64,000 nucleotides of DNA from Planctomycetota bacterium. GTDB lineage: Bacteria > Planctomycetota > Phycisphaerae > Phycisphaerales > Phycisphaeraceae. The stretch is from positions 18,664-82,663 of the forward strand of contig JAJRXX010000005.1 of the NCBI GenBank assembly GCA_024276075.1, read 5' to 3'. Made by a program: the position numbers and the translations under genes. Below are positions 20,095 through 37,902 of this stretch, piece by piece (the stretch's first letter is position 1; every line of letters begins with the position of its first letter). The notes below the pieces were generated by a model, which was not told where the DNA came from, ran no database searches, and worked only from the letters and a program-made list of their open reading frames with translations.

Positions 20095-21648
20095 TCACCT
20101 TTTGCCCTTCGTCCTACGGCTCACCTGAAATGACGACGTGGCTAACGTTTCCCAATTATCAATCTTTGTTTTACGCTTATCCCGAGACAGCGTAGCAATC
20201 GCGGCGTCTTCGTAATACGAATCATTGTTGAAATGTGTCGTAGACACCTCTTCAAAAATAGCGCCGTCTAGCGTGTGAAACTTGTGCCAAACGCCTGGGG
20301 AGACGGTGATGATGTCGCCTGGCTGCAACTTTGAACGGTGGCCGTCTAGCTCGATTTCAAGGTCGCCGTGCAGCAGTTGGAAGGACTCTTCCTTCTTCTG
20401 GTGATGGTGATAGGGGTGTTTTTGGCGGGGTAGCTGGATGATTAGTTTTTTGCAATAGGAACGATTAATGCAGTCGACGATAACACACCCAAACTCGCGG
20501 AACCGTTCCAGGCCGTAGTGGTGCGAAACCTCAATCTTGCTCTTTGGGCTAACGGATAGCTTCGCGTCGTTTAGCATGGCCCGGGTCTGTAGAACGATTC
20601 GCGATAGCAGTTCTTGTTTTGAAGTATCCGTTTGAGCGATGGTCGAATCGATGGGCTCACCGGGCGCGTAATCACGATTGGCTGTCAGCCCCCGGCCCCA
20701 GTGGCTGGCGTCTAGCTGATGGTCCTGCAATGGCATGGCGAATTGGACGTTGTCGGTAAAAATTACCTGGCCTTTTTGGATAGGTGTCTTAGCCCAAACG
20801 CCACGCATCAAAGATTTGAGCGATAGCCGTTCTTCGGAACACCCCGGTGCCCGGTAATCGCCGCCACAGGCCTGCACAGCCCGTTTGTAGGCATTAAGCC
20901 AGTGGTCGATTTGTTCGGGCGTGGACGAATAACTGTTTAATTGGTATTGCTCGGTGGGCAATCCGACGTGGCGCTCGAACATGCGCGCGCCCAGTGCATA
21001 AGCGATCTGCACAGGTTCGGTGGCAGCGGGGTCTTCGTGTGTGGACCAGCCGATGGGAACACCGGGGTATCGCGATCGGAGCAGACGGATTTGGTTTAGG
21101 CTTAATTTATCGTTGGGCGTGGGGTACATCGCGACACAATGCATAATGCCAAAGGGCACGTTCCTGTGCTGGAAGTAGCTGACCAGGCGATCGATTTGGC
21201 TCAGCGCCAGGCCCGCGGTGGAAACGATAACGGGGCGGTTGGCTCTGGCAACACGCTCGACCAGGGGGCGGTCGGATGCGGAACAACTGGCAATCTTGAT
21301 GACCTGGATATCGAGGTCGAGCAGGTGATCGACAGATGTTTCGTCGAAGGGCGTACAGATAGTGGTCATGCCGGCGTCGCGGACGACTTGGGTCATCTTG
21401 GCGTAGTCATCCAGGCTCAGCCTCGTGCTGATAAAACGAGGGATGTGCTTGACGTCGTTTCGGTTTTTGTAATCAGGATGGATGAGGGTATCGAGGTGCC
21501 GGAACTGGAATTTCAGGCCGGCGCGGACGCGGTGCTTGTGCGCAGCTTTGGCGATATGATCGATAATGGCCAGGCCGTGCTTTAGATCGCCTTGATGGTT
21601 GTTGGCGAGATCGAAAACAAATAGACCTTCAAAATCAAACGCTTGCAT
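20095..21648 (-). CDS. NeuB-family ulosonic-acid synthase fused to a SAF domain and a C-terminal lyxose-isomerase-like cupin
   Basis: FVFDLANNHQGD, IKIASCSASD and GWSTHE (NeuB/PseI/LegI family); RGVWAKTPIQKGQVIF (SAF-like); HPYHHHQKKEESFQLLHGDLEIELDG...PGVWHKFH...FEEVST (cupin, D-lyxose/mannose isomerase-like). ATG at 21648; the track ORF starts at TTG 21660. Confidence 0.75.
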   Translation of the reverse strand: MQAFDFEGLFVFDLANNHQGDLKHGLAIIDHIAKAAHKHRVRAGLKFQFRHLDTLIHPDYKNRNDVKHIPRFISTRLSLDDYAKMTQVVRDAGMTTICTPFDETSVDHLLDLDIQVIKIASCSASDRPLVERVARANRPVIVSTAGLALSQIDRLVSYFQHRNVPFGIMHCVAMYPTPNDKLSLNQIRLLRSRYPGVPIGWSTHEDPAATEPVQIAYALGARMFERHVGLPTEQYQLNSYSSTPEQIDHWLNAYKRAVQACGGDYRAPGCSEERLSLKSLMRGVWAKTPIQKGQVIFTDNVQFAMPLQDHQLDASHWGRGLTANRDYAPGEPIDSTIAQTDTSKQELLSRIVLQTRAMLNDAKLSVSPKSKIEVSHHYGLERFREFGCVIVDCINRSYCKKLIIQLPRQKHPYHHHQKKEESFQLLHGDLEIELDGHRSKLQPGDIITVSPGVWHKFHTLDGAIFEEVSTTHFNNDSYYEDAAIATLSRDKRKTKIDNWETLATSSFQVSRRTKGKR

Positions 21649-21690
21649 TGCCACAGACAACCTTTAATCAATACGTAGAGACGAACCTCG

Positions 21691-22470
21691 CTACAGTGAT
21701 TTTCCGATCTCATACACCCGCTCGGTGTGCTGATAGTATTGGCCCCGGTGTGTATTAACTTGGTCGGGTCGTTGACAGAGGTAGGCTACACGCGTCTTTG
21801 CCAACACCCTGCTTTGTCGGTAATGACAACTTGATTTTTGTATGTTCTCAAAGTCCACCATTTCGAGCCAAGACCGTATCGCGAGGCTGCTGGGCAGGTG
21901 CGTGACGTTATTCGACACGTGGTATTTTTTCTTGTTGTCTTGTGAGGGTGGGTGCAGTATCTGAACGCAATTTTGGTTTCGAAGCAACGGCTCACGTGTG
22001 GTAGCAGATTCGATGACGAACCAGCCCCGCGGTTTTAGCAAATCGAATAGGCGTTTAATCATCCTCAGCTGTTCGGGATTGTGGTACAGGACGCCTGTGC
22101 ACCAGATGACATCGAATGACGATTCCTCAAACAAGCGGTCATACATCACGTTGGCTGTGTGGTATACGATTTGGGTGCGTGATTGGCCTAGCTTCTTGAG
22201 CCAACGCTGATTCGATTTTTCTTTGTCTTTTAGGTCGACGAGGTCCAGCCGCGCGGGCTTGAGCGTTAGCAGACGCTCTGTGTCCTGCCCGTCTTTTGGC
22301 CCGATCTCTAAAAACCTGCGGCCAGAGTCGCACTCGCCCATGAGTAGCCTAAGCTCTTCAAACAATGACTGCCGATAGTCTTGCCCGGTAACACCTGGGT
22401 GCAACCGATCCAGCGCAATCACGACGTTGGTTCTGAACGGCCGTTTGAGGATATTTGCTAAATGAGCCAT
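21691..22470 (-). CDS. class I SAM-dependent methyltransferase
   Basis: RFLEIGPKDGQDTERL (motif I-like), VIWCTGVLYH, LKPRGWFVIE. Confidence 0.7.
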   Translation of the reverse strand: MAHLANILKRPFRTNVVIALDRLHPGVTGQDYRQSLFEELRLLMGECDSGRRFLEIGPKDGQDTERLLTLKPARLDLVDLKDKEKSNQRWLKKLGQSRTQIVYHTANVMYDRLFEESSFDVIWCTGVLYHNPEQLRMIKRLFDLLKPRGWFVIESATTREPLLRNQNCVQILHPPSQDNKKKYHVSNNVTHLPSSLAIRSWLEMVDFENIQKSSCHYRQSRVLAKTRVAYLCQRPDQVNTHRGQYYQHTERVYEIGKSL

Positions 22471-22525
22471 GGTCCGGTGCGTCTCGGGTGTCGATTGATT
22501 GTCACTTTTTCACGACGAGGTGACG

Positions 22526-22645
22526 CTATGCTTTCTGTCCAATAAAGGTGTAGTGAAAATCACTGCCCTGACCTTCTCGATATCTGGCGTCGTAGTATCC
22601 AACGTGTACGTTCATGAACATACGAATTGGTGAAGCAGAACTCAT
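22526..22645 (-). CDS. possible 39-aa small ORF between the oxidoreductase and methyltransferase genes
   Basis: ATG at the complement of 22643-22645, 1 nt after the upstream stop codon (22647-22649): MSSASPIRMFMNVHVGYYDARYREGQGSDFHYTFIGQKA*. Below the ORF-track length cutoff; no homology evidence. Confidence 0.2.
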   Translation of the reverse strand: MSSASPIRMFMNVHVGYYDARYREGQGSDFHYTFIGQKA

Positions 22646-22646
22646 A

Positions 22647-23765
22647 TTATGGGCTTAAACATGCCTCTGCCACGTCTGTGATATTAGCGGGTGTGTAGGT
22701 GTGGCCGCGATGGACCTGGACCGTCTTGTTTACCTCGTTGGATTGATACGCAGCGGCTATGATGAGCATGGTGTCGAGGCCACGGTACAGGGAGACGGGT
22801 GAATCCTGCACAGCACCGCTTAGGATGTCGTGGACGTGTTGGACTTCACCTTTGAAGTCGTCGGGTCGGGACTTGGGAAAGAGTTTTTTGGTTGTAACCC
22901 CATCAACAGCGTGAATCACCGCGTCGTGGTTTGCGTCGTAGTTCACGTGCCACTCGAGTGACCCTTCAGACCCTTGGACCCGGAGGGTCTTGACAGGTGG
23001 CTGCGTGACGACGTCTTGTATGACGTATCCGATCAGGCCCGCGTCTGTTTTTAGGTGCAGTTGAGCGATGCGATCATATTGGGCGCCGTGGTCCTGGACG
23101 ACGTCCATCATGGCGTGCACCTGCGAGACGTGCCCGGCACCTAATGCGTGCGCGAAATGCTGCCAAATGTTGATCCCGTGGGAATGCTCACCGCAAGCAC
23201 CCCCGCCACGTGATGCATGGCCCAGGTAAGAGTCACTAGGCCCAGCCAACCAGGGGTGAGCTGCAAATATGCCGCCCCAGTGCTCGGTCCACCGAACGGC
23301 GATAGTCTGCGGCTGACCGAGGAGCCCGGTACTGAGGAGTTCCTGCGCGTAGAGCGTGTGCGGCGTGAGGACGTGGTTGTATCCCACACCGACGAATGCG
23401 CCAGCCGACTGCGCCTCTTCAAGGAGTTGATCGCAACCCTTGAGGGAAGGGTCGCAAGCGGGCTTTTCAATCATGACCACTCTGGGGCAATGAAGACGGA
23501 TCGCCTCTCGTGCGAGTGCGATGTGCGAGTCGGGTGGCGTGCCGATAAACACCGCATCGTAACGGCCTTGGGAGGCTTGCTCGGGCGTGGCGAGTTCGAT
23601 CGCGTCGTCCCATTGCCCGTAACGGGACGGATAGATCGAAGTGCGTGTGCGGTCCAGGGCCCCGGGATCGGTATCACAGATCAGAACACCCCATCCCCGG
23701 CATCGACACGCGTGGGCCAAATGATTGCCGATCGAGCCGGCACCGTAGATTTTGACTTTGTACAT
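22647..23765 (-). CDS. Gfo/Idh/MocA-family NAD(P)-dependent sugar oxidoreductase
   Basis: MYKVKIYGAGSIGNHLA Rossmann start, VFIGTPPDSH, VMIEKP motif. Start trimmed to ATG 23765. Confidence 0.75.
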   Translation of the reverse strand: MYKVKIYGAGSIGNHLAHACRCRGWGVLICDTDPGALDRTRTSIYPSRYGQWDDAIELATPEQASQGRYDAVFIGTPPDSHIALAREAIRLHCPRVVMIEKPACDPSLKGCDQLLEEAQSAGAFVGVGYNHVLTPHTLYAQELLSTGLLGQPQTIAVRWTEHWGGIFAAHPWLAGPSDSYLGHASRGGGACGEHSHGINIWQHFAHALGAGHVSQVHAMMDVVQDHGAQYDRIAQLHLKTDAGLIGYVIQDVVTQPPVKTLRVQGSEGSLEWHVNYDANHDAVIHAVDGVTTKKLFPKSRPDDFKGEVQHVHDILSGAVQDSPVSLYRGLDTMLIIAAAYQSNEVNKTVQVHRGHTYTPANITDVAEACLSP

Positions 23766-23949
23766 GGATGGGGTCCCGATCGAGAAAAGCTGAAACGGTC
23801 TTATCAAAGCCAGAGGCAATCATCAAATTCACGGACAACCGCATATATACGTAAATTACTTCAAATGACGATGATACGGACATTCCCCTGATCGCCGATG
23901 CGTATGACCTCTGGTCGGACCGATCAACTAAGCCTATTTTGTGTTGTAT

Positions 23950-24660
23950 ATGAAAATCGGCTTTCTTTCATCGATCAAGAGCCCGCTTCTGGGGTATTAC
24001 CTTCGCGGGTTTTTCGACCGTGGCGTGCCAGTCGAAGCGGTGCTGCTGGATGAAAAGACATTTTCCGCTAAGGAGGAGGGACTCTTCCAGGAGCGTACAC
24101 GTGGGCAGTGGTGTGTGGAGACGCTTTATGATCTCGAAAAATTGGCGGTTCCATTTTACTTTGTGAAGGACCACAACGGTGACGCATGTATCGATTTGAT
24201 CAAACGGCTCGGGCTTGATTTGCTTGTCAATGCGACGACGCTACGGATCCTAAAGCACCCGGTGCTTGATGCTGCCCCGCGGGGTGTGTTGAATTGCCAC
24301 CCTGGCATGCTGCCGGGGTATCGCGGGTGCACGTGTGTGGAGTGGGCGATCTATGAAGACCAGCCCGTCGGGAATACAGCACATTTTATGTCACCCGGGA
24401 TCGACGAAGGGCCTATCGTGTACCAGGAGAGCATTCGGTTTTCCAAACAGGACGACTACCATGCGGTCCGCCTGAAGGTGTATCGCCAAAGCTTGGGTGT
24501 ATTGGTCAAAGCGGTGCGTCGGATCGAGCGTGAAAACTTAACGTGTGCAAACACGCCCGCGCAAGCCCAGGGGCGGTACTACCGGGTGATCGACGACAAG
24601 AAACTACACACGGTGAAAGACAAGTTGAAAACGGGTTCGTACACCTATCAAGGTGACTAG
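23950..24660 (+). CDS. sugar N-formyltransferase-like protein (Formyl_trans_N fold)
   Basis: LNCHPGMLPGYRGC corresponds to the HxSLLPxxRG motif of Fmt/PurN-type formyltransferases, followed by GIDEGPIV. An alternative GTG start lies at 23941. Confidence 0.65.
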   Translation: MKIGFLSSIKSPLLGYYLRGFFDRGVPVEAVLLDEKTFSAKEEGLFQERTRGQWCVETLYDLEKLAVPFYFVKDHNGDACIDLIKRLGLDLLVNATTLRILKHPVLDAAPRGVLNCHPGMLPGYRGCTCVEWAIYEDQPVGNTAHFMSPGIDEGPIVYQESIRFSKQDDYHAVRLKVYRQSLGVLVKAVRRIERENLTCANTPAQAQGRYYRVIDDKKLHTVKDKLKTGSYTYQGD

Positions 24661-24680
24661 CTCGGAAACGATCGCATATC

Positions 24681-26294
24681 ATGACGCTAAGTATCCAACG
24701 AGTTAAGCGTATTGTCCGTCAAATCGACCCCCGGATTCGATACCGCATCGAGCGAGACCGCCGAATCCGATCGGCTTACGACGCCAAGCTCGATCAACTG
24801 GGACGAGCATCCAAGCAGCGATTCGAGGGGACGATCTTGGTCGACGGGAAGTGGGATAACCCCCACTACTGGTTTCGATATGCGCTGCTGCGTGCTGGGT
24901 TGGGCTTATCACACGGAAAGGAGGTGGGCCTACTCGGAGCCCACCGACGCCGCGAACAAACCCGGACGATGAAGCAACTGGGCTTTGCGGACGTCGTTGA
25001 TCTGCAACGGTACAAACCGAACCGTAAAATCAAAAATCTAGCTGACCGACTCATTGAAACAATCGGATCGCCGGACGATATCCTTCGGCTCAACCTTCCA
25101 TACGAGTTCCCCGCAGGCACGTTCTACGACTGTATTCTTAAGCAGCAGCGCCAAGCGTTTGTGCAGATCGATCACCCCGAGTTTCGGAATGCGTTGATTG
25201 AATACCTTGTGAGTCTTGAAGCCGCAGACGACCTACTAAAAAAACATCGCCCTAGACTCGTGGTCTCGAGCCACGCGATAGGCTCCCACGCATGCCTCGT
25301 CTGGCTAGCGCTGCGGCACGGCATCCCCACAATTATCCCGTTTGGTGACGTAGGCATCTCTCGGTTTTGGCGACCTCAAAGCAACGGAGAGTTCTTCGAC
25401 TTTTTTGACCGGGTAACGTGGGAAGAATATCTATCACTCTCGAAGACGCGACAGTCAACGGCACAACAAACGGGCAGCGCCTATTTGATAAAGCGTTTTG
25501 GTGGAGACCTATCAAATCTGGGCGCGCATTATGCGTATAAAAAACGGGAGCGTCGATTTGACCGAGAGACAGCGTGTCGGCAATTCGGCTGGGACTTGGA
25601 TCGGCCGATCATCACGGTCTACGCATCAAACTGGTTTGACTTCCCGCACTCAACGGGGATGAAGGGGTTTCGTGATTATTACGACTGGATGCTCGAAACG
25701 ATCGGTGTTGCTCGAAAACGGATGGACATTAATTGGTTATTCAAAAGCCATCCCTTGAACGAGTGGTACGGGGGCCTCACCCTGGAAGACGCGGTGGGAC
25801 CCCTGGACTCGCAACACATCCGCATGGCAGACACTAGCTGGAATGGCCTATCGATGCTCCAAGGCGTCGATGGGATCGTGACGTTTCAAGGCACAATCGG
25901 GGTAGAAGCCCCAGCGATGGGCACGCCTGTGCTGACTGCGCAGCGGGGTTGGTACGGGGACTGGCAATTCGTCACCGCTGCTGACGATCGGGATTCGTAC
26001 CTAGAGAAGTTGCGTACAAATTGGTGGGAGCAATCGCCTACCCAACAGGAAGAACGGAAACGGCGTGCCCTGGCGTTTGCGTGCTTATACTGGGCACGTC
26101 CCGAATGGCAAGACGGTTTTTTGCTGCGGGACGATAGCGAGCAATGGTCGCTGTATGGACCAGTGATGGATCTGATAGATCGCTGCCCCGGGCAAATCGA
26201 CCGTGAAATCGATCTAATCGGGCAGTGGTACGACTCGGAGCATGGACACTTCCATGCATACAAGATGCTCCGAACGTCAAAGTGGATTGTCTAG
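24681..26294 (+). CDS. KpsS/KpsC-like (Capsule_synth-type) putative ulosonic-acid glycosyltransferase
   Basis: 537 aa. LFKSHPLNEW and DGIVTFQGTIGVEAPAMGTPVLTA resemble the HP and TinStvGlEAl..GkPV signatures of capsule beta-Kdo transferases. From memory only. Confidence 0.4.
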   Translation: MTLSIQRVKRIVRQIDPRIRYRIERDRRIRSAYDAKLDQLGRASKQRFEGTILVDGKWDNPHYWFRYALLRAGLGLSHGKEVGLLGAHRRREQTRTMKQLGFADVVDLQRYKPNRKIKNLADRLIETIGSPDDILRLNLPYEFPAGTFYDCILKQQRQAFVQIDHPEFRNALIEYLVSLEAADDLLKKHRPRLVVSSHAIGSHACLVWLALRHGIPTIIPFGDVGISRFWRPQSNGEFFDFFDRVTWEEYLSLSKTRQSTAQQTGSAYLIKRFGGDLSNLGAHYAYKKRERRFDRETACRQFGWDLDRPIITVYASNWFDFPHSTGMKGFRDYYDWMLETIGVARKRMDINWLFKSHPLNEWYGGLTLEDAVGPLDSQHIRMADTSWNGLSMLQGVDGIVTFQGTIGVEAPAMGTPVLTAQRGWYGDWQFVTAADDRDSYLEKLRTNWWEQSPTQQEERKRRALAFACLYWARPEWQDGFLLRDDSEQWSLYGPVMDLIDRCPGQIDREIDLIGQWYDSEHGHFHAYKMLRTSKWIV

Positions 26295-26375: not shown

Positions 26376-27353
26376 ATGGGCTTATTTGACGACAAAACCG
26401 TGCTTGTCACCGGCGGGACCGGGTCATTCGGGAAGGCCTTTATCCAAACGCTGCTCTCGACGACGCGGGTAAAACGGCTAATCATCTTGAGCCGAGACGA
26501 GTACAAGCAATTCGAGATGGCGCAGATGTATCCCGATGAGGATCGCCTGCGGTTTTTTATTGGTAACGTCCGGGACAAGGAACGGCTGTACCGCGCATTT
26601 TCAGGCGTGGACTATATCGTTCATGCCGCCGCGTTGAAGCAGGTACCAGCAGCGGAGTACAACCCCTTTGAAGCGGTGAAGACGAATATCCACGGCGCTC
26701 AGAACGTGATCGACGCGGCGATCGACGCGGGCGTGAAAAAAGTGATTGCGCTATCGACGGATAAGGCCAGCAGCCCGATCAACCTATACGGCGCCACGAA
26801 GCTGGTAAGCGACAAACTATTTGTGGACGGAAACGCATACGCGGGTTCTAGCGAGACGACGTTCTCGGTGGTGCGCTACGGAAACGTGGTGGGCTCGCGT
26901 GGCAGTGTGATCCCGTTTTTCAAGCGGATCGCACACACAGGTGAGCTACCGATTACGGATAAAAACATGACGCGGTTCTGGCTCACACTAGACAAAAGCG
27001 TGGAGATGGTGATCCACGCGTTCGAATTGATGGCGGGCGGGGAGGTCTTTGTGCCGAAGATCCCGAGCATGAAGGTAATCGACCTTGCCAGGGCAATCTC
27101 GTCAACAGCAAAAATCAAGATCGTCGGCATTCGGCCGGGCGAAAAGGTCCACGAGGAACTAATCAGCATCAACGACGCCAGACGCACCATCGACATCGGC
27201 GAATACTATGTCATTCAGCCTGAAGTGGAATGGTGGAGCAGCAACGAGCGGATACAGGGCAATCCAGTCACGGAGGGATTCCGGTACGGCAGCGACAACA
27301 ATACGCAGTGGCTAAGTGTCGATGATCTGCGCGAAATGATTGAGGATGTCTAA
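26376..27353 (+). CDS. pseB: UDP-N-acetylglucosamine 4,6-dehydratase (inverting), PseB
   Basis: KTVLVTGGTGSFGKAF, LIILSRDEYKQ, FFIGNVRD, HAAALKQVP, STDKASSPINLYGATK: the FlaA1/PseB signature set. Confidence 0.9.
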   Translation: MGLFDDKTVLVTGGTGSFGKAFIQTLLSTTRVKRLIILSRDEYKQFEMAQMYPDEDRLRFFIGNVRDKERLYRAFSGVDYIVHAAALKQVPAAEYNPFEAVKTNIHGAQNVIDAAIDAGVKKVIALSTDKASSPINLYGATKLVSDKLFVDGNAYAGSSETTFSVVRYGNVVGSRGSVIPFFKRIAHTGELPITDKNMTRFWLTLDKSVEMVIHAFELMAGGEVFVPKIPSMKVIDLARAISSTAKIKIVGIRPGEKVHEELISINDARRTIDIGEYYVIQPEVEWWSSNERIQGNPVTEGFRYGSDNNTQWLSVDDLREMIEDV

Positions 27354-28494
27354 GCGACATTACCCCTACGGCCGACAGACGATCGATCAGAGCGATATCG
27401 ATCACGTGGTCCGTGTGCTGCGTAGCGATTACCTGACGACAGGGCCCGCAATAGAAACATTTGAGGAAGACCTGTGCGCCTACACGGGTGCTGGGCACGC
27501 GGTTGCGGTGAGCTCCGGGACCGCTGCGCTGCACGCGGCATATCACGGGGCTGGCCTTGGGCCTGGCGACGAGGTCATCACGTCGCCGTTGACGTTCACG
27601 TCAACGGCAAACGCAGCGTTGTTCCTCGGAGCAACGGTCCGATTCGTTGACGTAGACGCCCAGACCGGCTTGATCGACCCAGCAGGTATCGAGTCAGCGA
27701 TCACCAAACGGACACGGTTGATCGTGCCGGTCGATTATGCCGGCATCCCCGCTGACTACGACCGGATCAACGCGATCGCCAAGCAACACGGGTTGGCTGT
27801 GATCGCCGACGGCGCGCATTCCCTCGGTGCGTCGTATCACGGCCGGCATGTAGGCGTACTGGCGGATGCGACGGCTACGAGCTTCCATCCGGTTAAACCG
27901 ATCACCACAGCCGAGGGCGGAGCGGTACTGACAAACGACAACAAAATCCATCAGCGTGCAGCGGCATTTCGCACACACGGCATCACGCGCGACGCGAAGC
28001 AATTCACCAAACAAAATACGGGGCCTTGGTTCTATGAAATGCACGAGCTGGGTTACAACTACCGGCTATCCGATCTACACGCAGCACTCGGAATCAGCCA
28101 AATACGCAAGATCGATCAGTTCATCGCTCGACGACGGGCTATTGCGGGGCTATACGATCAGATGCTTGGAGGTATAGACGGGTTGACCGTTCCCGCTCGT
28201 GTGGAAGGTGTCGAATCAGGTTGGCATCTCTACGTGATCCGGGTGGCCAACGCGACACGACGTGGCGCATTCTTTGAAAAACTCAAATCGCTACACGTGG
28301 GTGTACAGGTACACTACATCCCGGTTTATTATCACCCCTATTACCAGGGGCTGGGGTATCGCAAGGGATTGTGCCCCGTGGCGGAGGACTTTTATGACCG
28401 CTGCGTTTCGCTGCCTATCTACCCGTCGCTAACCGACGACGACGTGGCGTGCATCGCGGACCGTGTCCGCCAAGCGGCAGGCGCATCCTTGTGA
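27346..28494 (+). CDS. pseC: UDP-4-amino-4,6-dideoxy-N-acetyl-beta-L-altrosamine transaminase, PseC
   Basis: YGRQTIDQSDIDHVVRVLRSDYLTTGP, SFHPVKPITTAEGGAVLTND (PLP Lys); DegT family. The ATG at 27346 overlaps the pseB stop by 8 nt. Confidence 0.9.
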   Translation: MSKRHYPYGRQTIDQSDIDHVVRVLRSDYLTTGPAIETFEEDLCAYTGAGHAVAVSSGTAALHAAYHGAGLGPGDEVITSPLTFTSTANAALFLGATVRFVDVDAQTGLIDPAGIESAITKRTRLIVPVDYAGIPADYDRINAIAKQHGLAVIADGAHSLGASYHGRHVGVLADATATSFHPVKPITTAEGGAVLTNDNKIHQRAAAFRTHGITRDAKQFTKQNTGPWFYEMHELGYNYRLSDLHAALGISQIRKIDQFIARRRAIAGLYDQMLGGIDGLTVPARVEGVESGWHLYVIRVANATRRGAFFEKLKSLHVGVQVHYIPVYYHPYYQGLGYRKGLCPVAEDFYDRCVSLPIYPSLTDDDVACIADRVRQAAGASL

Positions 28495-30328: not shown

Positions 30329-31056
30329 GGTTTCTGATCCTTGATGGGCTCGATGGTGACGTCAGCGTGGATTTTACTGCCATCGAGTGCTGCGTTTTGA
30401 AACGTGAAACGGTAGCCGTGGTGCTCGAAGTAGGCGTGGGGATAGGTCTCAGCGTCGAGCATACGGATAAAATCATAGAGCGATTCGGGCGATCCCGTAT
30501 CGGCGATGCGGCTGTCGGCGGGGGTTCGCCGTGAAAAGTGCGTGGGCGGGCCCTCTTGCGGGGTCGGGGTCGGGTGTGTGTCGATGATCTTGCGGATCAT
30601 CTGGGCGGCGGTCTCGGTGGCACGCTTGTAAATATCCTCTGCTCGACCCGCCAGCGACAGAGGCGATTTTGCATAAATAGGGCCTGCATCCATTTCTTCG
30701 ACCATCCTGAGAGCTGAGAGCATGGTCTGCTTGTGCCCGCGAAGGATCAGGTTCTGAAGCGGGCTGCCCCCTCGACCAAAGGGCAGGTCGGTCATGTGGA
30801 AACAGACACACTCGTAGGCATCGACGAGGTGCTGCTCGACCCGCCAAGACCAGTGCAAAAAGAACAAGTAGCGCGGGTGGATCGAATCAACATAATCGTG
30901 GGTGAGCGTGACGGGATCATCGGCGTAGTGCCATCGGCCTGGGAAGGCCCTGATGGTGCTCTCGAAGATTTCCCTGCACCAGGGTTTGCAGCCAGCCACG
31001 ATGTACGCGGGGTCAGTCATTTCGTCAGGGTCGCTGTACGGCGTGTTCAGGATCAA
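30325..31056 (-). CDS. formyltransferase-fold protein (Fmt-like, Pse-cluster associated)
   Basis: FHMTDLPFGRGGSPLQNLI matches the HxSLLPxxRG..P region; MVEEMDAGPIYA. TTG start at 31056 or ATG at 31020. Confidence 0.65.
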   Translation of the reverse strand: MILNTPYSDPDEMTDPAYIVAGCKPWCREIFESTIRAFPGRWHYADDPVTLTHDYVDSIHPRYLFFLHWSWRVEQHLVDAYECVCFHMTDLPFGRGGSPLQNLILRGHKQTMLSALRMVEEMDAGPIYAKSPLSLAGRAEDIYKRATETAAQMIRKIIDTHPTPTPQEGPPTHFSRRTPADSRIADTGSPESLYDFIRMLDAETYPHAYFEHHGYRFTFQNAALDGSKIHADVTIEPIKDQKP

Positions 31057-31092
31057 TCGTGGTATTTTACTTGATGGGCAAGCGACATTTTT

Positions 31093-32598
31093 TCAGAGCC
31101 GGGCGGGGCGAAATACGTAACGTTTGGCTGGCACCCCGTTGACCTGGAGGTCCTGGTCGAATCGAAACCCTGATCGGCGAAAAGCATTCAAGGAAGCGGT
31201 GTTTGCGGGTTTGATCAGAGCATAGACGCCACAAGGGTGGGCGTCGGTAAGGAATTGGCACAGGGCTTTGCGGATCATGGCGCCGCCGACGCCTCGGCCT
31301 CGCAGGTCTTGGCGAATGTTGATCGTCACAAACGTCTGGCCTGATTGAACGTCGAACCTGACTTGGCCCAACGGGTCGTGATCCTGATCCTCACAGATGT
31401 AAAAGAAGCAGTCAGGATCGTTTAGGCGGCGCTGATACCAGGCCACGTGATCGTCCCAAACAATGGGGTCGGTGGAAAAGGCGTTTTGACGAACCGTGCG
31501 GTCATTCGACCATTGGTATACCCGTTTCACATCGTCAGACGCCGCGCGCCTGATACGCATCGACGCACAGAGCATCTCATCAAGCACGCGATTGGCTCCC
31601 AAGCCGTCGATCATCTCGCGGCCTTTACGACTCATGGCGGCGCATGCGGCGGGGTCGCGAATAAGTCGTGCGAGCTGTTGTGCGCAAACGTGGGTATCGA
31701 GCTCATAATGCCACCCCAGCGACACAGCTTGACCCCGGTCGTGCAGCCCCGCGGCGATGGGCTGTTGGTTGTCTGCTATCACGACGACAAGGTGCGGCAC
31801 ACCCATGTAGGCGAGCTCCCAGCAGGTGCCCCCCGCCGCTGATACCGCTACATGGGCCCAGTGCATCAGATCGGGCATCGACGAGGGATTGTGTATGAGC
31901 TGAACATCGTGCGGGCAGGACTCGACAGCGTGCTGAAAATCGTCGTCGTGAGACTGTGCCAAGCCGACCACAACCTTGATTTCAAGCGGTGCGCCTTGAA
32001 GTGACGCCGCCGCGTGGATGATCTTTGTGAGCACTTGATGATGGGTCGCACCGCCGAGCGTGACGAGCAGGTGAAATTCCTTTGACGCGGGCTGATTACT
32101 GGCCCCTTGGCACTGACGAAACTCGCGTCGGATCATGGCGTATTGAGAGCCCAATAGAAACACAGTCTCCCCAGGCGGATCGGGGTACATAGCAAGGTCA
32201 GCGTAGATGTTCTGATTAACCACGATATCCACGTGCTCGATGGGGGCGTGGGCGTAGTCGTCGATCCAGACGATCTTGTAGCCGTGCTGCTTCAGGGCTA
32301 ATTGGTAATCCTCCTGGAAGGCGTACCCATCGACGACGACCCAGTGCGCGCCTAGGTTTTGAGCGATCCGCGAAAGGTGCTGGGCATCTTGGATTGACCC
32401 AGACGCGCCTTGGGCGTGGTGGATGGGTATACCGCTTTCCCGCAAGCGATGTTCGAGAGCCTCGAATCCGGACCCAGTAACGAAGACCGCTTGCCCACCA
32501 CGGCCCTGCCACGCCTGCGCCAGGGCCAGGCAACGCATCGCGTGACCAGCTCCGATCTGTTGATTCGCGTCGGCACGGATGAGCAGCGGCTGAGTCAA
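31093..32598 (-). CDS. pseG-pseH: fused PseG (UDP-2,4-diacetamido-2,4,6-trideoxy-beta-L-altropyranose hydrolase) and PseH (GNAT N-acetyltransferase)
   Basis: N-terminus LLIRADANQQIGAGHAMRCLALAQAW (PseG signature). C-terminal GNAT region QVRFDV...IRQDLRGRGVGGAMIRKAL. TTG start. Confidence 0.85.
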   Translation of the reverse strand: MTQPLLIRADANQQIGAGHAMRCLALAQAWQGRGGQAVFVTGSGFEALEHRLRESGIPIHHAQGASGSIQDAQHLSRIAQNLGAHWVVVDGYAFQEDYQLALKQHGYKIVWIDDYAHAPIEHVDIVVNQNIYADLAMYPDPPGETVFLLGSQYAMIRREFRQCQGASNQPASKEFHLLVTLGGATHHQVLTKIIHAAASLQGAPLEIKVVVGLAQSHDDDFQHAVESCPHDVQLIHNPSSMPDLMHWAHVAVSAAGGTCWELAYMGVPHLVVVIADNQQPIAAGLHDRGQAVSLGWHYELDTHVCAQQLARLIRDPAACAAMSRKGREMIDGLGANRVLDEMLCASMRIRRAASDDVKRVYQWSNDRTVRQNAFSTDPIVWDDHVAWYQRRLNDPDCFFYICEDQDHDPLGQVRFDVQSGQTFVTINIRQDLRGRGVGGAMIRKALCQFLTDAHPCGVYALIKPANTASLNAFRRSGFRFDQDLQVNGVPAKRYVFRPARL

Positions 32599-32738
32599 CG
32601 GTATTCCCTATAATCCACACACGGTTGCCGCAAGGTTAAACGGTATCTTATGGACGACAGCATCATCATGGGGTATCGATCAACGATGCGGGCACGGTTT
32701 CGTGTGAACAGCTTGCGGGGGATACAGGGTACATCGAG

Positions 32739-33434
32739 ATGAACATCGCGATCATACTTGCCCGGGGCGGTAGCAAACGCATACCCAGGAAGAATATAAA
32801 GCTGTTCTCGGGTAGGCCCATCATCGAATACCCGATCATGACAGCGAAACGCAGCGGCCTATTCGATCGGGTCATCGTCTCAACGGATGACACCGAGATC
32901 GCTCAGGTAGCTGCTGCTGCCGGTGCGGAGGTCCCGTTCGAGCGTCCCGCGGCATTGGCGGATGATTATACGCCCACAGCAGACGTCGTTGCCCACGCAA
33001 TCAAGACCCTCAACAAGGCCGGCCCGACGATCAAACATGCCTGCTGTATCTACGCGACGACCCCTTTCTTAAAAGAACAGTATCTTCGAGAAGGGTTCCA
33101 GACCCTCACAACCACCGATGCGGGCTGTGTCTTTTCCGTGACCACTTTTGACTTCCCGATATACCGTGCGTTGAAAATCGATAGCGAGGGACAAGTCGGC
33201 ATGGTTTGGCCCGAGCACGAACTGACGCGATCGAATGACCTATCGGCTGCGTACCACGACGCGGGGCAGTTTTACTGGGTGAAGGCATCGACGTTTTTGC
33301 AAACACCTCGGCTATACAGCCCGGGGGCACGAGCGGTGATCATCCCGCGTTACCTCGCTCAGGACATCGACACACCCGAAGACTGGGAAACAGCCCAAAG
33401 GCTGTACGCCGCCAATCAATGCGTAGATTCGTAG
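32739..33434 (+). CDS. pseF: pseudaminic acid cytidylyltransferase, PseF
   Basis: NIAIILARGGSKRIPRKNIKLFSGRPII, CMP-sugar synthetase (NeuA/PseF) fold, 231 aa. Confidence 0.9.
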   Translation: MNIAIILARGGSKRIPRKNIKLFSGRPIIEYPIMTAKRSGLFDRVIVSTDDTEIAQVAAAAGAEVPFERPAALADDYTPTADVVAHAIKTLNKAGPTIKHACCIYATTPFLKEQYLREGFQTLTTTDAGCVFSVTTFDFPIYRALKIDSEGQVGMVWPEHELTRSNDLSAAYHDAGQFYWVKASTFLQTPRLYSPGARAVIIPRYLAQDIDTPEDWETAQRLYAANQCVDS

Positions 33435-33648
33435 CCCTACGTTTCTGCAGGCGTTAGGTGGAAACAAGTCTAGACAACGGAACTGGCGTTTGCGGCAAGT
33501 TCGCCCCCGGGTAACACTCGATGGGGTTGACGATTACGTGCTGACCAACCGCTTGTTTAAGGCGCTTTACCCCACCGATTTGGCCTTTACCTGCGCTGAC
33601 ATGTCATGTATCGACGCCAACACCCCGATCGACTCAAGATCAACGCCC

Positions 33649-34656
33649 ATGTACAACAGCGTGGTTATGAATCAAGCAAACCCCATGCGGGCGATCGTCA
33701 TTGGGCTGGGTCGCATCGGCCTGCTCTACGACGCCCAGCTTGACCCCGATAGCGATTGGGTCTTGACGCACACCCGTGCGTGCATGACACATCCAAGCAT
33801 TTATTTAGTAGGTGGCGTGGACCCGGACGCCCAGCGGCGCGAAACGTTCAGCCGAGTGACGGGGCAAACGGCGTTCGCTTCGGTCGCACAAGCCGTCTCG
33901 TCGGTCAAGGAGGCAGACATCGTCATCATCGCAACCCCCACGGGACTTCGTGAGATGGTCATTGCGTCGTGTTGGCAGTTGAATCCGAAACTAGTGCTGA
34001 TAGAAAAACCCCTCGCCACGACACTCGAAGAAGCCCAGCGAATTGTTCAGGCATGCGAAGAGAAAAACGTACAATTAGCGGTCAATTATCAGCGTCGGTT
34101 TGATCCAGCGTTCCAAGAGCTAAGGCAGTTTTTGCGGGAGGGGCAAATCGGCCAACTGTGTGGTGGATACTGCTATTACACTGGTGACGCCTTAAATCAC
34201 GCTTCACACTTCGTTGACTTGATGATCTATCTAATAGGAAAACCGCTTAGCGTTGAATGTATCCCGGGGCACAGCAGCGAATACGGACATTCTTTCCTGT
34301 GTCGGTATGAACGTGCCAGCATCTATTTCATCCCCCTCGACACAGAATACGGCATGGCGGAAATGGATTTATTGTTTGAACACACGAGGGTTCGGCTGGA
34401 GAATTACAGCAGAAATATCCAGGTATACCGCCCCGAAGAAGACTCCATCTTTGCAGGCCACCAGCGACTAGGGCCTAACCAAGACGTATTGACGATACCG
34501 GATAGCACGCGGTATCAATACCAGGTAATCGACGGCCTGCTAAAAAATATGGCACGATCAGAACAGCCCGTATCTAATGGAGTAACCGCAATGGCGACAT
34601 TGGCGTGTTGCCTGAAAGGGACCCATGCCACGCAGGGTGTTTATTGTCAGCCATGA
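33649..34656 (+). CDS. Gfo/Idh/MocA-family oxidoreductase
   Basis: MRAIVIGLGRIGLLYD Rossmann region, VIIATPT, VLIEKPLA. The track ORF begins at TTG 33490; ATG 33649 or 33667 is more plausible. Confidence 0.7.
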   Translation: MYNSVVMNQANPMRAIVIGLGRIGLLYDAQLDPDSDWVLTHTRACMTHPSIYLVGGVDPDAQRRETFSRVTGQTAFASVAQAVSSVKEADIVIIATPTGLREMVIASCWQLNPKLVLIEKPLATTLEEAQRIVQACEEKNVQLAVNYQRRFDPAFQELRQFLREGQIGQLCGGYCYYTGDALNHASHFVDLMIYLIGKPLSVECIPGHSSEYGHSFLCRYERASIYFIPLDTEYGMAEMDLLFEHTRVRLENYSRNIQVYRPEEDSIFAGHQRLGPNQDVLTIPDSTRYQYQVIDGLLKNMARSEQPVSNGVTAMATLACCLKGTHATQGVYCQP

Positions 34657-35566
34657 CGCGGGTGGTGCCGAGATTCTCTCCGCCTGGTGTAAAACGCATG
34701 CTGACCGGTACGACATGACAGTATGTGTAGACGGTCCCGCCAGGGTTATTTTTGAGCGTGACCACCCCGACGCTAAGCACGCAAGCCTTCAAGACATCTT
34801 GTTGCTCAACCGGGACGACCTCGTCTTAACAGGTACTAGCCTGCGATCAGACCACGAACGCCAGGCCATTCGACTGGCCCGTCAATGCCGTGTTCCTAGC
34901 GCCAGTTTCCTGGATCATTGGGTCAATTACCGTCGGCGTTTTGGCTCGGCTGACGATTGGCGCGACGGCCTGCCCGACGAGATTTGGATCGGCGATGCGT
35001 TCGGCGTCGAATACGCCCGGTCAGAAGGGTTCCCCGCGTAACGAATCAGAGAGGTGGCGAACCCCTACTTCGAAAAAGTACGCCACAGTGCCCGAAACCG
35101 TAACAGTGGCTTCGCAGTTGACGGCAAGGTATCAATATTATTTATCGGCGAGCCGTTTAATCACACGCTTCGAGCCAAATTCGGTGAGCAATGGACCGAC
35201 TACGATGATGAGAATAAAAATCTAAATGGTTTTTTTTGCGCAACGGACCGATTTCGAGATCGTGTCCACCGCGTCACGCTGCGTCCACATCCGTCGGAAG
35301 ACCCGTGCAAATACATCGACGCTGCCAGGCCGTTTCATGAACGACTGCCAATCATGCAATCCAATAAACCCTTGTTTGACGACATTGCTCAGCACGACGC
35401 GGTCGTGGGGATCGAGAGTATGGCGTTGGTCGTGGCTACGATCATGCGCAAACCCGCATTTAGCTGCGTCACGGGTCGGCCCTGGAAGATATCGCTGCCC
35501 CACCGCGAGATTGTGCACATCAGTGATTACGATACAGTATTTGAACGGGTGCTTAGCAATGACTAG
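34625..35566 (+). pseudogene. GT-B-like/capsule-biosynthesis-like gene interrupted by one in-frame TAA
   Basis: Track ORFs 34625..35041 and 35054..35566 are in the same frame and separated only by TAA at 35039-35041: ...ARSEGFPA*RIREVANPYFEKV.... The sequence reads as one protein of about 313 aa. Confidence 0.7.
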
Positions 35567-35582
35567 AACTGGTTTCATAACT

Positions 35583-35603
35583 CCCCTCCCTTTCAGGGAG
35601 GGG
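35583..35603 (+). repeat. G/C-rich 9-bp hairpin (cccctccct-ttc-agggagggg)
   Basis: Perfect inverted repeat read directly; sits between the split gene and the DegT gene. Confidence 0.7.
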
Positions 35604-35655
35604 CAGGGGGAGGGTAGAGTGTCCGTGATTAACGAGGCTTTCACCCCTCACCCAA

Positions 35656-35683
35656 CCTCTCCCCTCAAGGGGAGAGGGGTTTT
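35656..35683 (+). terminator. G/C-rich 9-bp hairpin followed by GGTTTT (terminator-like)
   Basis: cctctcccc-tcaa-ggggagagg then ggtttt; 24 nt upstream of the next start codon. Confidence 0.45.
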
Positions 35684-35706
35684 GAAACAGCTTCCAGGGG
35701 TATCCG

Positions 35707-37005
35707 ATGCGTCTTGCGATAGCGGGTGGCCAACCCGTGCGAACGAAAAAATTTCCCGCGTACCGGTTTATCGGCGACGAAGAAAAGCAAGCCGTCGCCA
35801 GGGTACTCGACTCGGGCGTGCTGTCGCGATACCTGGGCTGCTGGCACGACGACTTTTACGGCGGGCCCGAAGTTCAAGCCCTTGAGCGGCAATGGGCAGA
35901 CTATTTCGGCGTGAAGCACGCTGTGGCAGTGAACTCGTGCACGTCCGGGATTCAATGCGCTGTGGGCGCGATCGGCACGGAGCCTGGAGACGAGGTCGTC
36001 GTCAGCCCGTACAGCATGTGCATCTCAGCAACCGCGCCCCTGCTGTATGGAGCTGTCCCCGTCTTCGCCGATATTGAGGATGAGTATTTTTGTCTCGATC
36101 CTGATCGGGTTGAGGCCGCGATCACGTCACGGACCCGAGCAATCATTGCGGTAGACCTGTTTGGTCAGCCGTACGACGTCGAGGCGATCAACGCGATCGC
36201 AAAGCGACACGGGCTCTATGTGATCGAAGACGCCGCCCAAGCACCCGGCGCGACGTACCAAGGACAACACGCGGGCACGCTCGGTGATATCGGCGTCTTT
36301 TCGCTCAATTATCACAAACACATCCATTGCGGCGAGGGAGGCGTCGTAACGACGGACAGCGACGAGCTAGCGGAAAAGGTGCGCCTGATCCGCAACCACG
36401 CTGAAGCGGTCGTCCAAGGCAAGGGCCACAAAGACCTGACGAACATGCTGGGCTTCAACTTCCGCATGACCGAAATCGAAGCAGCTATCGCCAGTTGCCA
36501 GCTACGCAAGCTCAACAGCCTGATCGAGCGCCAACGAGCAAACTGCGACTACTTGGCCAACCGACTCGGGGAGATACCCGCCCTGACGCCGCAAAAAACA
36601 CGCCCCGGTGCGGAACACTCATATTATGTACACGCATTTAAGTTTGACGAACGCGTCGCGGGTGTGCCGCGGGATGCGTTCATCGACGCCGTGGCTGCAG
36701 AGCTTCCGGTTACAGAACTGCGTGAAGGGGAAGGCGTAAAAATTTGCAACGGATACGTCAAGCCTCTGTATCTTTTGCCGTTGTTCCAGGAGCGGATCGC
36801 GATAGGCTCTAAAGGCTACCCCTTTACTGGACCCGACCACACCAGCGAGGTGTGCTACGACCGTGGCATCTGCCCCGTGGTAGAACGGGTAGAGAGTAAA
36901 GAGCTTTTTGGCCACGAGCTGATGCGCCCGCCTGTCACGCAGGAAGACATGGACGACGTGGCAAATGCATTCGAAAAAGTCTGGACATTGCGCGACCAGC
37001 TTTGA
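35707..37005 (+). CDS. DegT/DnrJ/EryC1/StrS-family sugar aminotransferase (second in the island)
   Basis: GDEEKQAVARVLDSGVLSRY, AVNSCTSGIQCAV, SLNYHKHIHCGEGGVVTTD (PLP Lys), 432 aa. Confidence 0.85.
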   Translation: MRLAIAGGQPVRTKKFPAYRFIGDEEKQAVARVLDSGVLSRYLGCWHDDFYGGPEVQALERQWADYFGVKHAVAVNSCTSGIQCAVGAIGTEPGDEVVVSPYSMCISATAPLLYGAVPVFADIEDEYFCLDPDRVEAAITSRTRAIIAVDLFGQPYDVEAINAIAKRHGLYVIEDAAQAPGATYQGQHAGTLGDIGVFSLNYHKHIHCGEGGVVTTDSDELAEKVRLIRNHAEAVVQGKGHKDLTNMLGFNFRMTEIEAAIASCQLRKLNSLIERQRANCDYLANRLGEIPALTPQKTRPGAEHSYYVHAFKFDERVAGVPRDAFIDAVAAELPVTELREGEGVKICNGYVKPLYLLPLFQERIAIGSKGYPFTGPDHTSEVCYDRGICPVVERVESKELFGHELMRPPVTQEDMDDVANAFEKVWTLRDQL

Positions 37006-37077
37006 CGCCCCGTAGCGGGTATGGGTGTGAGACAAGACCACACGCGAGATGCTGTGCCACAGCAGGAATAAAAGATC

Positions 37078-37902
37078 GTGGGTGTAGACGCCATGGGTGA
37101 ACGAAGACTCTACGACGAACAAAACCGCCGGCTTGTCTATCTCGTTCAAAAAGCGACCCCCGACTATTGGGACCAGCTCTGGACCGACTCCCAACTCGTA
37201 AAACACCTCGAGGAGAGCACCGACCGCTGGCTATTAAAAATCACAAAAAAATTCCTGCCCAACACGTCGAGCCGAATCCTCGAAGGCGGCTGCGGCACCG
37301 GCGGGAAGGTCTACACGCTCCACCAAGCGGGATACACCGCGACGGGAATTGACTTTGCCCAGAAGACAATCGCTGCTGTGAAGCAAGCCGTGCCAGACTT
37401 GGACGTGCGCATCGGCGATGTAAGACACCTGGACTTTGCCGACGAATCTTTTGAAGGCTACTGGTCACTGGGTGTGATCGAACACTTTTGGGAGGGGTAT
37501 GGCAAAATCCTTTCGGAGATATACCGCGTCTTGACGCCGGAAGGGTATTTGTTTTTGACAGTGCCGCAGCTATCGCCTTGGCGACGATACCAGGCAGCGC
37601 GAGGCCGATACGCGATGTTTGAGCCCGGAGCCGACAACGGTGAGCCAAACGGGTTTTATCAGTTCGCCATCCCGCCACGAACCATCATCAGGGACCTTCG
37701 GGAAGCAGGGTTTTCTGTGTTGCGTCACCACGGGGTCGACGGACTGCGTGGCATCAAGAACGATGTGTGTGGGCTGGCCCCTTTCGTTGCCCCAATCGTG
37801 GAGCCGCGCACGCTAACCGCTAAAGTCTTGCGCAGAGGTCTGAATGTCGCTTGCTCTCCCGTCTTCGGGCACATCCGCCTCTACATTGCCCGCAAATCGT
37901 AA
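37078..37902 (+). CDS. class I SAM-dependent methyltransferase
   Basis: ILEGGCGTGGKVYTLHQAGYTATGIDFA (motif I and post-I), LTPEGYLFLTVP. GTG 37078 or ATG 37093. Confidence 0.8.
   Translation: MGVDAMGERRLYDEQNRRLVYLVQKATPDYWDQLWTDSQLVKHLEESTDRWLLKITKKFLPNTSSRILEGGCGTGGKVYTLHQAGYTATGIDFAQKTIAAVKQAVPDLDVRIGDVRHLDFADESFEGYWSLGVIEHFWEGYGKILSEIYRVLTPEGYLFLTVPQLSPWRRYQAARGRYAMFEPGADNGEPNGFYQFAIPPRTIIRDLREAGFSVLRHHGVDGLRGIKNDVCGLAPFVAPIVEPRTLTAKVLRRGLNVACSPVFGHIRLYIARKS

Follow-up and report, generated by a model that had tools for sequence, protein, structure and literature searches.

A pseudaminic acid gene cluster of a widespread type, joined by recurrent accessory glycan modules, in a planctomycetal genome

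We have analyzed a 64-kb stretch of DNA from a Planctomycetota bacterium (below, the window, to whose positions all coordinates refer unless another contig is named), which at 20095–37902 carries a glycan locus of 17 genes (18 open reading frames, ORFs, with one gene split). The locus is a real gene cluster for the synthesis of cytidine monophosphate (CMP)-activated pseudaminic acid (Pse), with PseB, PseC, PseG, PseI and PseF present and intact. We lean, if only slightly, towards the reading that this is a functional CMP-Pse cluster of a widespread type combined with three recurrent glycan modules, and that its likely product is edited at the N-acyl groups, bearing formyl and/or a free amine; plain Pse5Ac7Ac as the sole product is very unlikely. 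Below we describe the core enzymes, the accessory genes and their neighborhoods in other genomes, and then weigh this reading against other explanations of the locus.

Results

Pseudaminic acid core enzymes

The core enzymes were assigned with NCBIfam equivalog models having curated cut-offs, and their scores are given as bits/cut-off. The inverting UDP-GlcNAc (uridine diphosphate N-acetylglucosamine) 4,6-dehydratase PseB (26376–27353, plus strand; TIGR03589, 521/408) is followed by the aminotransferase PseC (27346–28494, plus strand; TIGR03588, 464/423). On the opposite strand lie the pseudaminic acid synthase PseI (28497–29546, minus strand; TIGR03586, 488/340) and the UDP-sugar hydrolase PseG (31093–32598, minus strand; TIGR03590, 213/154), while the CMP-pseudaminic acid synthetase PseF is again on the plus strand (32739–33434; TIGR03584, 319/206). 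The PseG match covers the N-terminal two-thirds of its gene product, and the C-terminal third is a fused GNAT domain (PF13302, E 2e-11). The latter has 26 bits against the PseH model TIGR03585, whose cut-off is 93, and no PseH structures were found among its PDB matches at E ≤ 1. As the fused GNAT is generic and below the PseH cut-off, five of the six Pse steps are covered at the equivalog level, and the sixth is plausible. A preliminary description of this DNA, made from the sequence by eye, had counted all six steps as covered, and this stands for the five enzymes above.

The same description had listed ten further genes interleaved with the core ones. All ORFs named there are present, their positions agreeing exactly or to within a few codons with those it gave, and the further genes are of the types described, as seen from Pfam and NCBIfam matches and, for the one protein likened to KpsC, from its fold and family profile.

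A conserved operon with a deacetylase and a formyltransferase-fold protein

Two genes are placed between pseG and pseI on the minus strand. The gene next to pseG, FT2 (30325–31020, minus strand), encodes a 231-aa formyltransferase-fold protein of the PF21553 family (Formyl_trans_C_2); with Formyl_trans_N it yields 18 bits, below the cut-off of 26. The closest structure is 1ZGH, a structural-genomics entry without an assigned function (E 8e-50), for which the searchable literature holds nothing relevant. More than 7800 homologues exist at approximately 55–60% identity. A histidine and an aspartate aligning with H104 and D140 of ArnA are kept. The gene next to pseI (29648–30328, minus strand) encodes a de-N-acetylase of the PIG-L/LmbE family with an HPDDE motif (PF02585, 89 bits vs. 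a cut-off of 28), the full metal-binding motif reading SHPDDE. The PDB entries nearest to it are diacetylchitobiose deacetylase and BshB, that is, GlcNAc de-N-acetylases; we found nothing relevant in the searchable literature that ties PIG-L or LmbE to pseudaminic or legionaminic acid.

A scan with the FT2 alignment, one genome per species, listed 599 stretches, at least 565 of them confirmed relatives. Neighbors within 10 kb were counted by tblastn with the window proteins at the best 80 of at least 599 loci. PIG-L is present near FT2 at 79 of these 80 loci, PseI at 75, PseG at 73, PseC at 60 and PseB at 54; the fusion of PseG with GNAT is seen at 45 loci, and the exact order PseG, FT2, PIG-L, PseI on one strand, at 46. 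The hosts belong to Planctomycetota, Acidobacteriota, Verrucomicrobiota, Cyanobacteria, Chloroflexota, Nitrospirota and Peribacteria, and include the archaeon Methanoregula. The best matches of FT2, PIG-L and PseI of the window are planctomycetal, with 57–66% identity. Judged by gene content and order, PseG–GNAT, FT2, PIG-L and PseI are a common, conserved predicted type of pse operon, found in at least 565 species of many phyla.

Genes upstream of pseB and pseC

A second formyltransferase gene, FT1 (23941–24660, plus strand; PF00551, 66 bits), is of the stand-alone sugar N-formyltransferase type. The catalytic N-x-H…D motif is present, and both LNCHPGMLPGYRG and GIDEGPIV can be read in the translation; FT1 is thus predicted to be a canonical Formyl_trans_N formyltransferase. 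In the PDB it matches PurN, ArnA and sugar formyltransferases, and PseJ weakly. The FT1 gene has the same orientation as pseB and pseC, with which it seems to form a single operon; the same holds for the metagenome contig L001, the closest syntenic contig, where the gene order is also FT1, the 537-aa protein described next, PseB, PseC. The position of FT1 with pseBC, together with that of PIG-L and FT2, bears out the suggestion of the preliminary description that the product is not plain Pse5Ac7Ac.

The gene between FT1 and pseB (24681–26294, plus strand) encodes a 537-aa protein likened to KpsC/KpsS by its fold and family profile. It has no Pfam match at E ≤ 0.01, PF05159 included, and no NCBIfam match; its family comprises 111 homologue clusters, in eight of which PF05159 is detected. 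An AlphaFold2 model (predicted local distance difference test score, pLDDT, 94) has the GT-B fold, and its highest template modeling (TM) scores are to KpsC beta-Kdo (3-deoxy-D-manno-octulosonic acid) transferases, 0.51–0.54 when normalized by KpsC length and 0.33–0.34 by that of the query. The pair H357–P358 is invariant across the family and aligns with the KVHP of KpsC; the only meaningful PDB matches of the family profile are KpsC (E 0.008), with the invariant K-x-HP and G-x-EA…GKPV aligned. One homologue is found within a legionaminic-type cluster of Nitrospirota. The HP motif is common to GT-B enzymes that use CMP-ulosonic acids. Because of this motif, and of the precedent of KpsS1, a Pse-specific transferase (PMC11040635), we read the protein as probably a CMP-nonulosonate (pseudaminyl) transferase. 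It shares with KpsC/KpsS (6MGB, 6MGC, 8FUW) and with KpsS1 of Acinetobacter baumannii the GT-B fold and the setting in a nonulosonate cluster, but in sequence it is only marginally similar to them (profile E 0.008, a TM-score close to 0.5, no PF05159 match), and it is approximately 200 residues larger than the KpsC domain.

The NeuB–cupin and GFO1 genes

The left end of the locus is occupied by three genes on the minus strand. The first encodes a 517-aa (from ATG) fusion of a NeuB-family synthase with a metal-binding Cupin_2 domain (20095–21648; PF03102, 130 bits). Its scores with equivalog models, 128 bits vs. 400 for NeuB and 120 vs. 340 for PseI, indicate membership in the NeuB superfamily only. 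The best PDB match of the synthase half is 3G8R (E 1e-94), and more than 3600 homologues exist at approximately 60% identity; a literature search on NeuB plus cupin yielded nothing relevant. Next to it are MT1 (21691–22470), a methyltransferase dependent on S-adenosylmethionine (SAM; Pfam Methyltransf_23), which in L001 is reduced to a remnant, and GFO1 (22647–23819; Pfam), an oxidoreductase of the GFO/IDH/MocA family. The L001 homologue of GFO1 is shorter by 18 residues, and the true start is probably at 23765, the start that includes 23766–23819 being probably too far upstream. Both NeuB–cupin and GFO1 are intact, with 79 and 76% identity, respectively, to L001 and approximately 60 and 51% across phyla.

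GFO1 adjoins NeuB–cupin in L001–L004, L087 and L088. Elsewhere the full cassette consists of GFO, NeuB–cupin, a HAD phosphatase, a dedicated CTP_transf_3 cytidylyltransferase and a TIGR04396 protein of approximately 468 aa, the name of the model being "surface carbohydrate biosynthesis protein" (examples are L087, 6901–12411; L088, 6839–12432; and L001, 4196–16112). The latter protein has no BLAST similarity to the 537-aa protein of the window. The cassette is widespread in metagenomes, with 578 relatives. In 80 metagenome loci, many of them incomplete, GFO1 is found near NeuB–cupin in 60, the HAD phosphatase in 55, the cytidylyltransferase in 48, TIGR04396 in 17, and pse genes in 5–7. The association with pse genes recurs, as in two metagenome contigs (L118 and L145) the HAD and cytidylyltransferase genes of the cassette enclose the array pseB-pseC-pseF-pseG-pseI. 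The window holds two-fifths of this five-gene cassette, GFO1 and NeuB–cupin; tblastn over the 64 kb found no HAD phosphatase, no TIGR04396 protein and no second cytidylyltransferase, PseF being the sole match.

The enzyme order of the full cassette copies the logic of Kdo/Kdn synthesis, an isomerase-like cupin domain, NeuB synthase, HAD phosphatase and CTP_transf_3, and so suggests that the cassette may be a self-contained route to an undescribed CMP-ulosonic acid. The differences are NeuB in place of KdsA, a cupin in place of the SIS isomerase, HAD_2 in place of KdsC, and the extra GFO oxidoreductase; moreover, of the five cassette genes the window has just GFO1 and NeuB–cupin. We read these two as the putative remainder of a distinct cassette for another CMP-ulosonic acid. 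In three Thermodesulfobacteriota loci (L002–L004, approximately 300–20300) the GFO1/NeuB–cupin pair occurs without a cytidylyltransferase in a neighborhood of the lipid/phosphonate type, with an acyl-ACP (acyl carrier protein) synthetase, ACP, an alpha-oxoamine synthase and a short-chain dehydrogenase/reductase (SDR), a sphingolipid-like set, as well as PLD, a sulfatase, phosphoenolpyruvate (PEP) mutase and an APH-like protein. This setting hints at a role in lipid head groups, and, as no cytidylyltransferase is present there, the product of the pair need not be a CMP-sugar. A literature search found no link between a NeuB-like enzyme and the ceramide-phosphoglycerate pathway.

The GFO2, X and DegT2 genes

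Downstream of pseF, four genes follow on the plus strand. GFO2 (33490–34656) is a further GFO/IDH/MocA oxidoreductase, in which PF01408 begins at residue 67, so that the true start is probably at 33649–33685. It matches weakly the UDP-GlcNAc 3-dehydrogenase model (62 bits vs. 450) and inositol dehydrogenase; among PDB entries it matches 3MOI and then 3Q2K and 3Q2I, which we take to be the WlbA UDP-GlcNAcA 3-dehydrogenases.

Gene X (34625–35566, approximately 313 codons) is predicted to have a GT-B fold similar to UDP-sugar 2-epimerases. The preliminary description had noted it as a split GT-B-like gene, and it is indeed one gene: its halves, 34625–35041 and 35054–35566, are in the same frame and separated by a single in-frame TAA (35039–35041). 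An intact 294-aa homologue in the Nitrospirota contig L085 aligns across the stop, and the C-terminal half matches residues from about 140 to 305 of proteins of approximately 300 aa (425 matches). The R-x-HP motif is invariant in the family. The AlphaFold2 model of the intact homologue (pLDDT 94.6) resembles UDP-2,3-diacetamido-2,3-dideoxy-glucuronate 2-epimerase of the WbpI type, WecB and NeuC, with TM-scores of 0.60–0.66.

DegT2 (35707–37005), a 432-aa aminotransferase of the DegT/DnrJ/EryC1 family (PF01041, 292 bits), is below the cut-offs of both PseC and LegC (186 vs. 420 with the LegC model). Its best PDB match is 8GYH, on which the searchable literature holds nothing relevant, followed by KdnA and 2-deoxy-scyllo-inosose aminotransferases; WbpE is matched with E 6e-42. 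The 140-bp spacer between X and DegT2 (35567–35706) contains two G+C-rich palindromes, e.g., CTCCCCTCAAGGGGAG at 35659–35674, unique in the window; these may be REP-like (repetitive extragenic palindromic) elements or may serve within the operon as a terminator or a processing site. The last gene, MT2 (37078–37902), is a SAM methyltransferase (Methyltransf_11 in the Pfam/NCBIfam scan).

The trio GFO2/X/DegT2 is also found next to nonulosonate clusters of Methanoregula (L043), Nitrospirota (L085) and Alphaproteobacteria (L061, L072), in L085 additionally with a GNAT acetyltransferase; in the window the module has no acyltransferase of its own. These genes look like an independent branch of 3-amination and 2-epimerization of a nucleotide sugar rather than Pse tailoring, and, because of the stop codon in X, the branch would be impaired here.

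A likeness can be seen to the WbpB/WbpE/WbpD/WbpI (WlbA/C/B/D) pathway to UDP-2,3-diacetamido-2,3-dideoxy-mannuronic acid, in that enzymes of its classes, a GFO dehydrogenase, a DegT aminotransferase and a protein with a 2-epimerase fold, are encoded next to each other, in L085 together with an acetyltransferase. Still, all the similarities are remote, DegT2 being nearer to aminotransferases of free keto sugars or cyclitols; the window module lacks an acyltransferase and a UDP-GlcNAc 6-dehydrogenase, and X is interrupted. The trio follows the WbpB/WbpE/WbpI scheme and is not a member of that pathway.

Locus layout and surroundings

The genes form four blocks of alternating orientation in the ORF list, i.e., two divergent operon pairs, as had been described, with a convergent junction of 2 bp at 28494/28497. 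As GFO1 and GFO2 probably begin downstream of their annotated starts, the intergenic regions, both divergent and internal, exceed the lengths implied by the ORF list. A scan for promoters and terminators gave counts not exceeding those in shuffled sequence, and a scan of the window with Rfam found four tRNAs and nothing else.

The left landmark is tRNA-Ser(CGA) (19805–19892, plus strand; ARAGORN; Rfam tRNA, 58 bits), 203 bp from the locus, close to the 200 bp estimated previously. A perfect 19-nt copy of its 3′ end (19877–19895) is present at 20010–20028 on the plus strand and resembles the scar of an att site; the start-to-start spacing is 133 bp, and 0.02 matches are expected by chance. Apart from these two copies, a similar sequence occurs only at the 3′ end of tRNA-Ser(GCT) (43749–43767), and the repeat sits near the original tRNA end rather than on the opposite side of the locus.

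The G+C content is 0.559 in the locus, 0.580 in the left flank, 0.566 in the right flank and 0.568 in the whole window. The lower G+C noted by eye is therefore right in direction, but the dip is of approximately 1–2 points, real in sign and negligible in size, and the G+C at third codon positions (GC3) of the locus genes overlaps that of the flanking ones. The flanks consist of housekeeping genes, e.g., RuvB, PlsY, iPGM and YebC, and none of the ORFs that we scanned, within the locus and next to it, encodes an integrase. We have considered and rejected a horizontally acquired island inserted at the tRNA: the G+C shift is too small, no integrase is found among the scanned ORFs, and the repeat of the tRNA end is local, with none at the far end of the locus. 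In L001, identity over the left arm is 69–82%, and the mosaic is partly shared.

Glycan-related genes extend leftward past the tRNA, as an SDR sugar epimerase/dehydratase (17719–18726, minus strand; top match TviC-like, LegB model E 1.5e-54, both below the cut-off) and an HpnI-like family-2 glycosyltransferase (15660–16958, plus strand), left of tRNA-Ser, are found there. Eight kb to the right of the locus, the product of 45629–47899 (plus strand) is a membrane protein of 756 aa that has a PMT_2 (GT-C) domain, weakly matches the putative glycosyltransferases LA_3751/LA_3752 and is a possible glycan- or protein-glycosylating enzyme. A small islet of low G+C (43673–45562; G+C 0.47–0.49, GC3 0.48) is flanked by tRNA-Ser(GCT) and tRNA-Arg(CCT); its composition deviates far more than that of the pse locus, and its ORFs at 44236–44931 and 44897–45229 have no Pfam or NCBIfam match.

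Discussion

Proposed route

In the route that we propose, PseB and PseC would yield UDP-4-amino-4,6-dideoxy-L-AltNAc, whose new 4-amino group (N7 in the finished Pse) would be acylated either by FT1 (formyl, following the logic of PseJ) or by the GNAT fused to PseG (acetyl). PseG would then remove UDP, and PIG-L may strip the acetyl inherited from GlcNAc, that is, the future N5 substituent, the freed amine being re-acylated by FT2 or left free. PseI would condense the sugar with PEP, and PseF would produce the CMP-sugar, whose residue the 537-aa KpsC/KpsS-like protein could transfer to an acceptor; methyl groups may be added by MT1 and/or MT2. GFO2, X and DegT2 would oxidize, aminate and 2-epimerize a nucleotide sugar that supplies a further residue of this glycan.

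Several steps of this kind have precedents. PseJ makes Pse5Ac7Fo, PseF tolerates differing acyl groups at N5 and N7, and Pse7Fo5(3RHb) exists naturally (PMC11040635); the latter shows that N5 is re-acylated in nature. The same work calls the enzymes that vary the N-substituents of Pse largely unknown (PMC11040635). FT1 agrees with the PseJ route (PDB 6CI2/6CI4) in being a stand-alone Formyl_trans_N protein with N-x-H…D encoded with pseB and pseC, but its match to PseJ is weak (E 3e-7 across some 77 residues) and does not exceed that to PurN or ArnA, and PseJ is not among the matches of FT2. The SugarBase preprint reports that the planctomycete Ca. Kuenenia stuttgartiensis has CMP-nonulosonates in which one amine is free and one is N-formylated, as well as O-methylated forms; its authors connect these sugars with a gene cluster that includes a deacetylase and a formyltransferase (bioRxiv 10.64898/2026.04.20.719630). 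By its description this is the same combination within a nonulosonate cluster, also in a planctomycete.

Compared to the canonical Pse5Ac7Ac pathway PseB-C-H-G-I-F of Campylobacter jejuni and Helicobacter pylori, the window has PseB, PseC, PseG, PseI, PseF and an available GNAT, but no PseH equivalog, its GNAT being part of the PseG protein. In addition, pseG and pseI are separated by the PIG-L and FT2 genes, pseBC are preceded by genes for a formyltransferase and a KpsC-like glycosyltransferase, and there are no flagellin or Maf genes nearby.

A number of observations weigh against the proposed N-acyl editing. In FT2 the catalytic asparagine is replaced by a cysteine (or a gap), cysteine occupying this position in at least 90% of the sequences aligned, and the N-terminal half of the protein is shortened; these two features make its chemistry uncertain, as N10-formyl-tetrahydrofolate may not be its donor and it might even have no transferase activity. 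FT1 could just as well act in the GFO2/DegT2 branch, where an acyltransferase is lacking here. The Kuenenia cluster differs in being Leg-like, with legB/legC/legG homologues, and its genes have been assigned by neighborhood. Flagellin, Maf and export genes are absent from the window. As the candidate acyltransferases GNAT, FT1 and FT2 compete for two amino groups, the acyl pattern is not predictable, and, as the accessory proteins have no characterized orthologue, all steps beyond the five core enzymes are deduced from folds, motifs and neighborhoods.

Alternative explanations

The locus could make ordinary Pse5Ac7Ac, with the accessory genes building other residues or being unrelated, and with PIG-L and FT2 acting on a different amino sugar. 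The core set with the fused GNAT could suffice for this, GFO2, X and DegT2 do resemble a separate sugar branch, and glycan loci are often mosaic. Against it stands the position of PIG-L and FT2 inside the pseG…pseI operon, retained at 46 to 79 of 80 loci depending on whether exact order or mere proximity is counted; such conservation across distant phyla is otherwise hard to explain and argues that the two proteins act in the Pse route. The co-orientation of FT1 with pseBC in an apparent operon, both in the window and in L001, points the same way, and we regard this explanation as quite improbable. Less improbable, though still unlikely, is the synthesis of two ulosonic acids, a Pse derivative and a second keto-deoxy acid made by GFO1 and NeuB–cupin, where the cupin would isomerize a sugar or sugar phosphate, the NeuB domain would condense it with PEP, and activation would be due to a promiscuous PseF or to genes elsewhere in the genome. 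A second ulosonic acid had also been considered in the preliminary description. Both proteins are intact and highly conserved; elsewhere the pair sits in a cassette that would make, dephosphorylate, CMP-activate and transfer a sugar, this cassette is interleaved with pse genes in L118 and L145, and PseF accepts varied substrates. However, the phosphatase, second cytidylyltransferase and TIGR04396 protein that accompany NeuB–cupin elsewhere (at 55, 48 and 17 of 80 loci, respectively, many of them incomplete) are missing from the window by tblastn, leaving it without a dedicated phosphatase, cytidylyltransferase and transferase for the second acid, and the L002–L004 pairs without a cytidylyltransferase indicate that the product need not be a CMP-sugar.

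That the accessory genes belong to an already characterized route, to legionaminic acid, a dTDP (deoxythymidine diphosphate)-sugar or UDP-ManNAc3NAcA, is highly improbable. It is favored by the 186 bits of DegT2 with the LegC-family model and its WbpE match (E 6e-42), by the weak resemblance of GFO2 to UDP-GlcNAc 3-dehydrogenase and by the WbpI-type fold of X, but these scores are far under the cut-offs (186/420 and 62/450). Moreover, tblastn with the L085 copies found no NeuC/LegG (Epimerase_2) or LegB-like homologue in the window; the sole weak match to the LegB model is the SDR at 17719–18726, outside the locus (185 bits vs. a cut-off of 475). There is no LegI, as the NeuB-model matches are PseI and NeuB–cupin only, and no genes of the RmlA-D type are present. 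The legionaminic acid and dTDP-sugar routes, which had been named as matches that would overturn the initial interpretation, have thus been rejected on the model scores and the absence of NeuC/LegG. In agreement with the initial impression, we found no characterized pathway with this combination of genes in the searchable literature.

We thus return to a CMP-Pse cluster with N-acyl editing and adjoining modules. The idea of re-acylation in the preliminary description is reasonable. That description had also pictured the additional genes as one expanded tailoring set specific to an island; this does not hold, as they fall into four separately recurring modules.

Implications

Pseudaminic acids shape flagella, capsules and S-layers, as well as phage recognition and immune evasion. 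The Pse core of the locus is known. Each of the accessory modules is widespread, and we found no characterization of any of them in the searchable literature. Since the four accessory modules recur in many uncultured microbes, the locus is an uncharacterized but common variant rather than a one-off pathway.

The PIG-L/FT2 pair in pse operons could explain the free-amine and N-formyl nonulosonates detected in an anammox planctomycete. The KpsC-like 537-aa protein is a candidate pseudaminyl transferase, and the NeuB–cupin cassette, a candidate route to a CMP-ulosonic acid.

A bolder generalization, which we offer tentatively and consider rather doubtful, is that PseG–GNAT/FT2/PIG-L/PseI would represent a distinct and dominant environmental branch of Pse synthesis, in which the N5-acetyl is removed and the amine is left free or substituted anew, while NeuB–cupin/GFO1 would mark a second, undescribed CMP-ulosonic acid pathway with an isomerase–synthase fusion. 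If true, most "Pse clusters" outside model pathogens would not make Pse5Ac7Ac. The value of these observations lies in the widely distributed modules, the mosaic of this particular window being less important.

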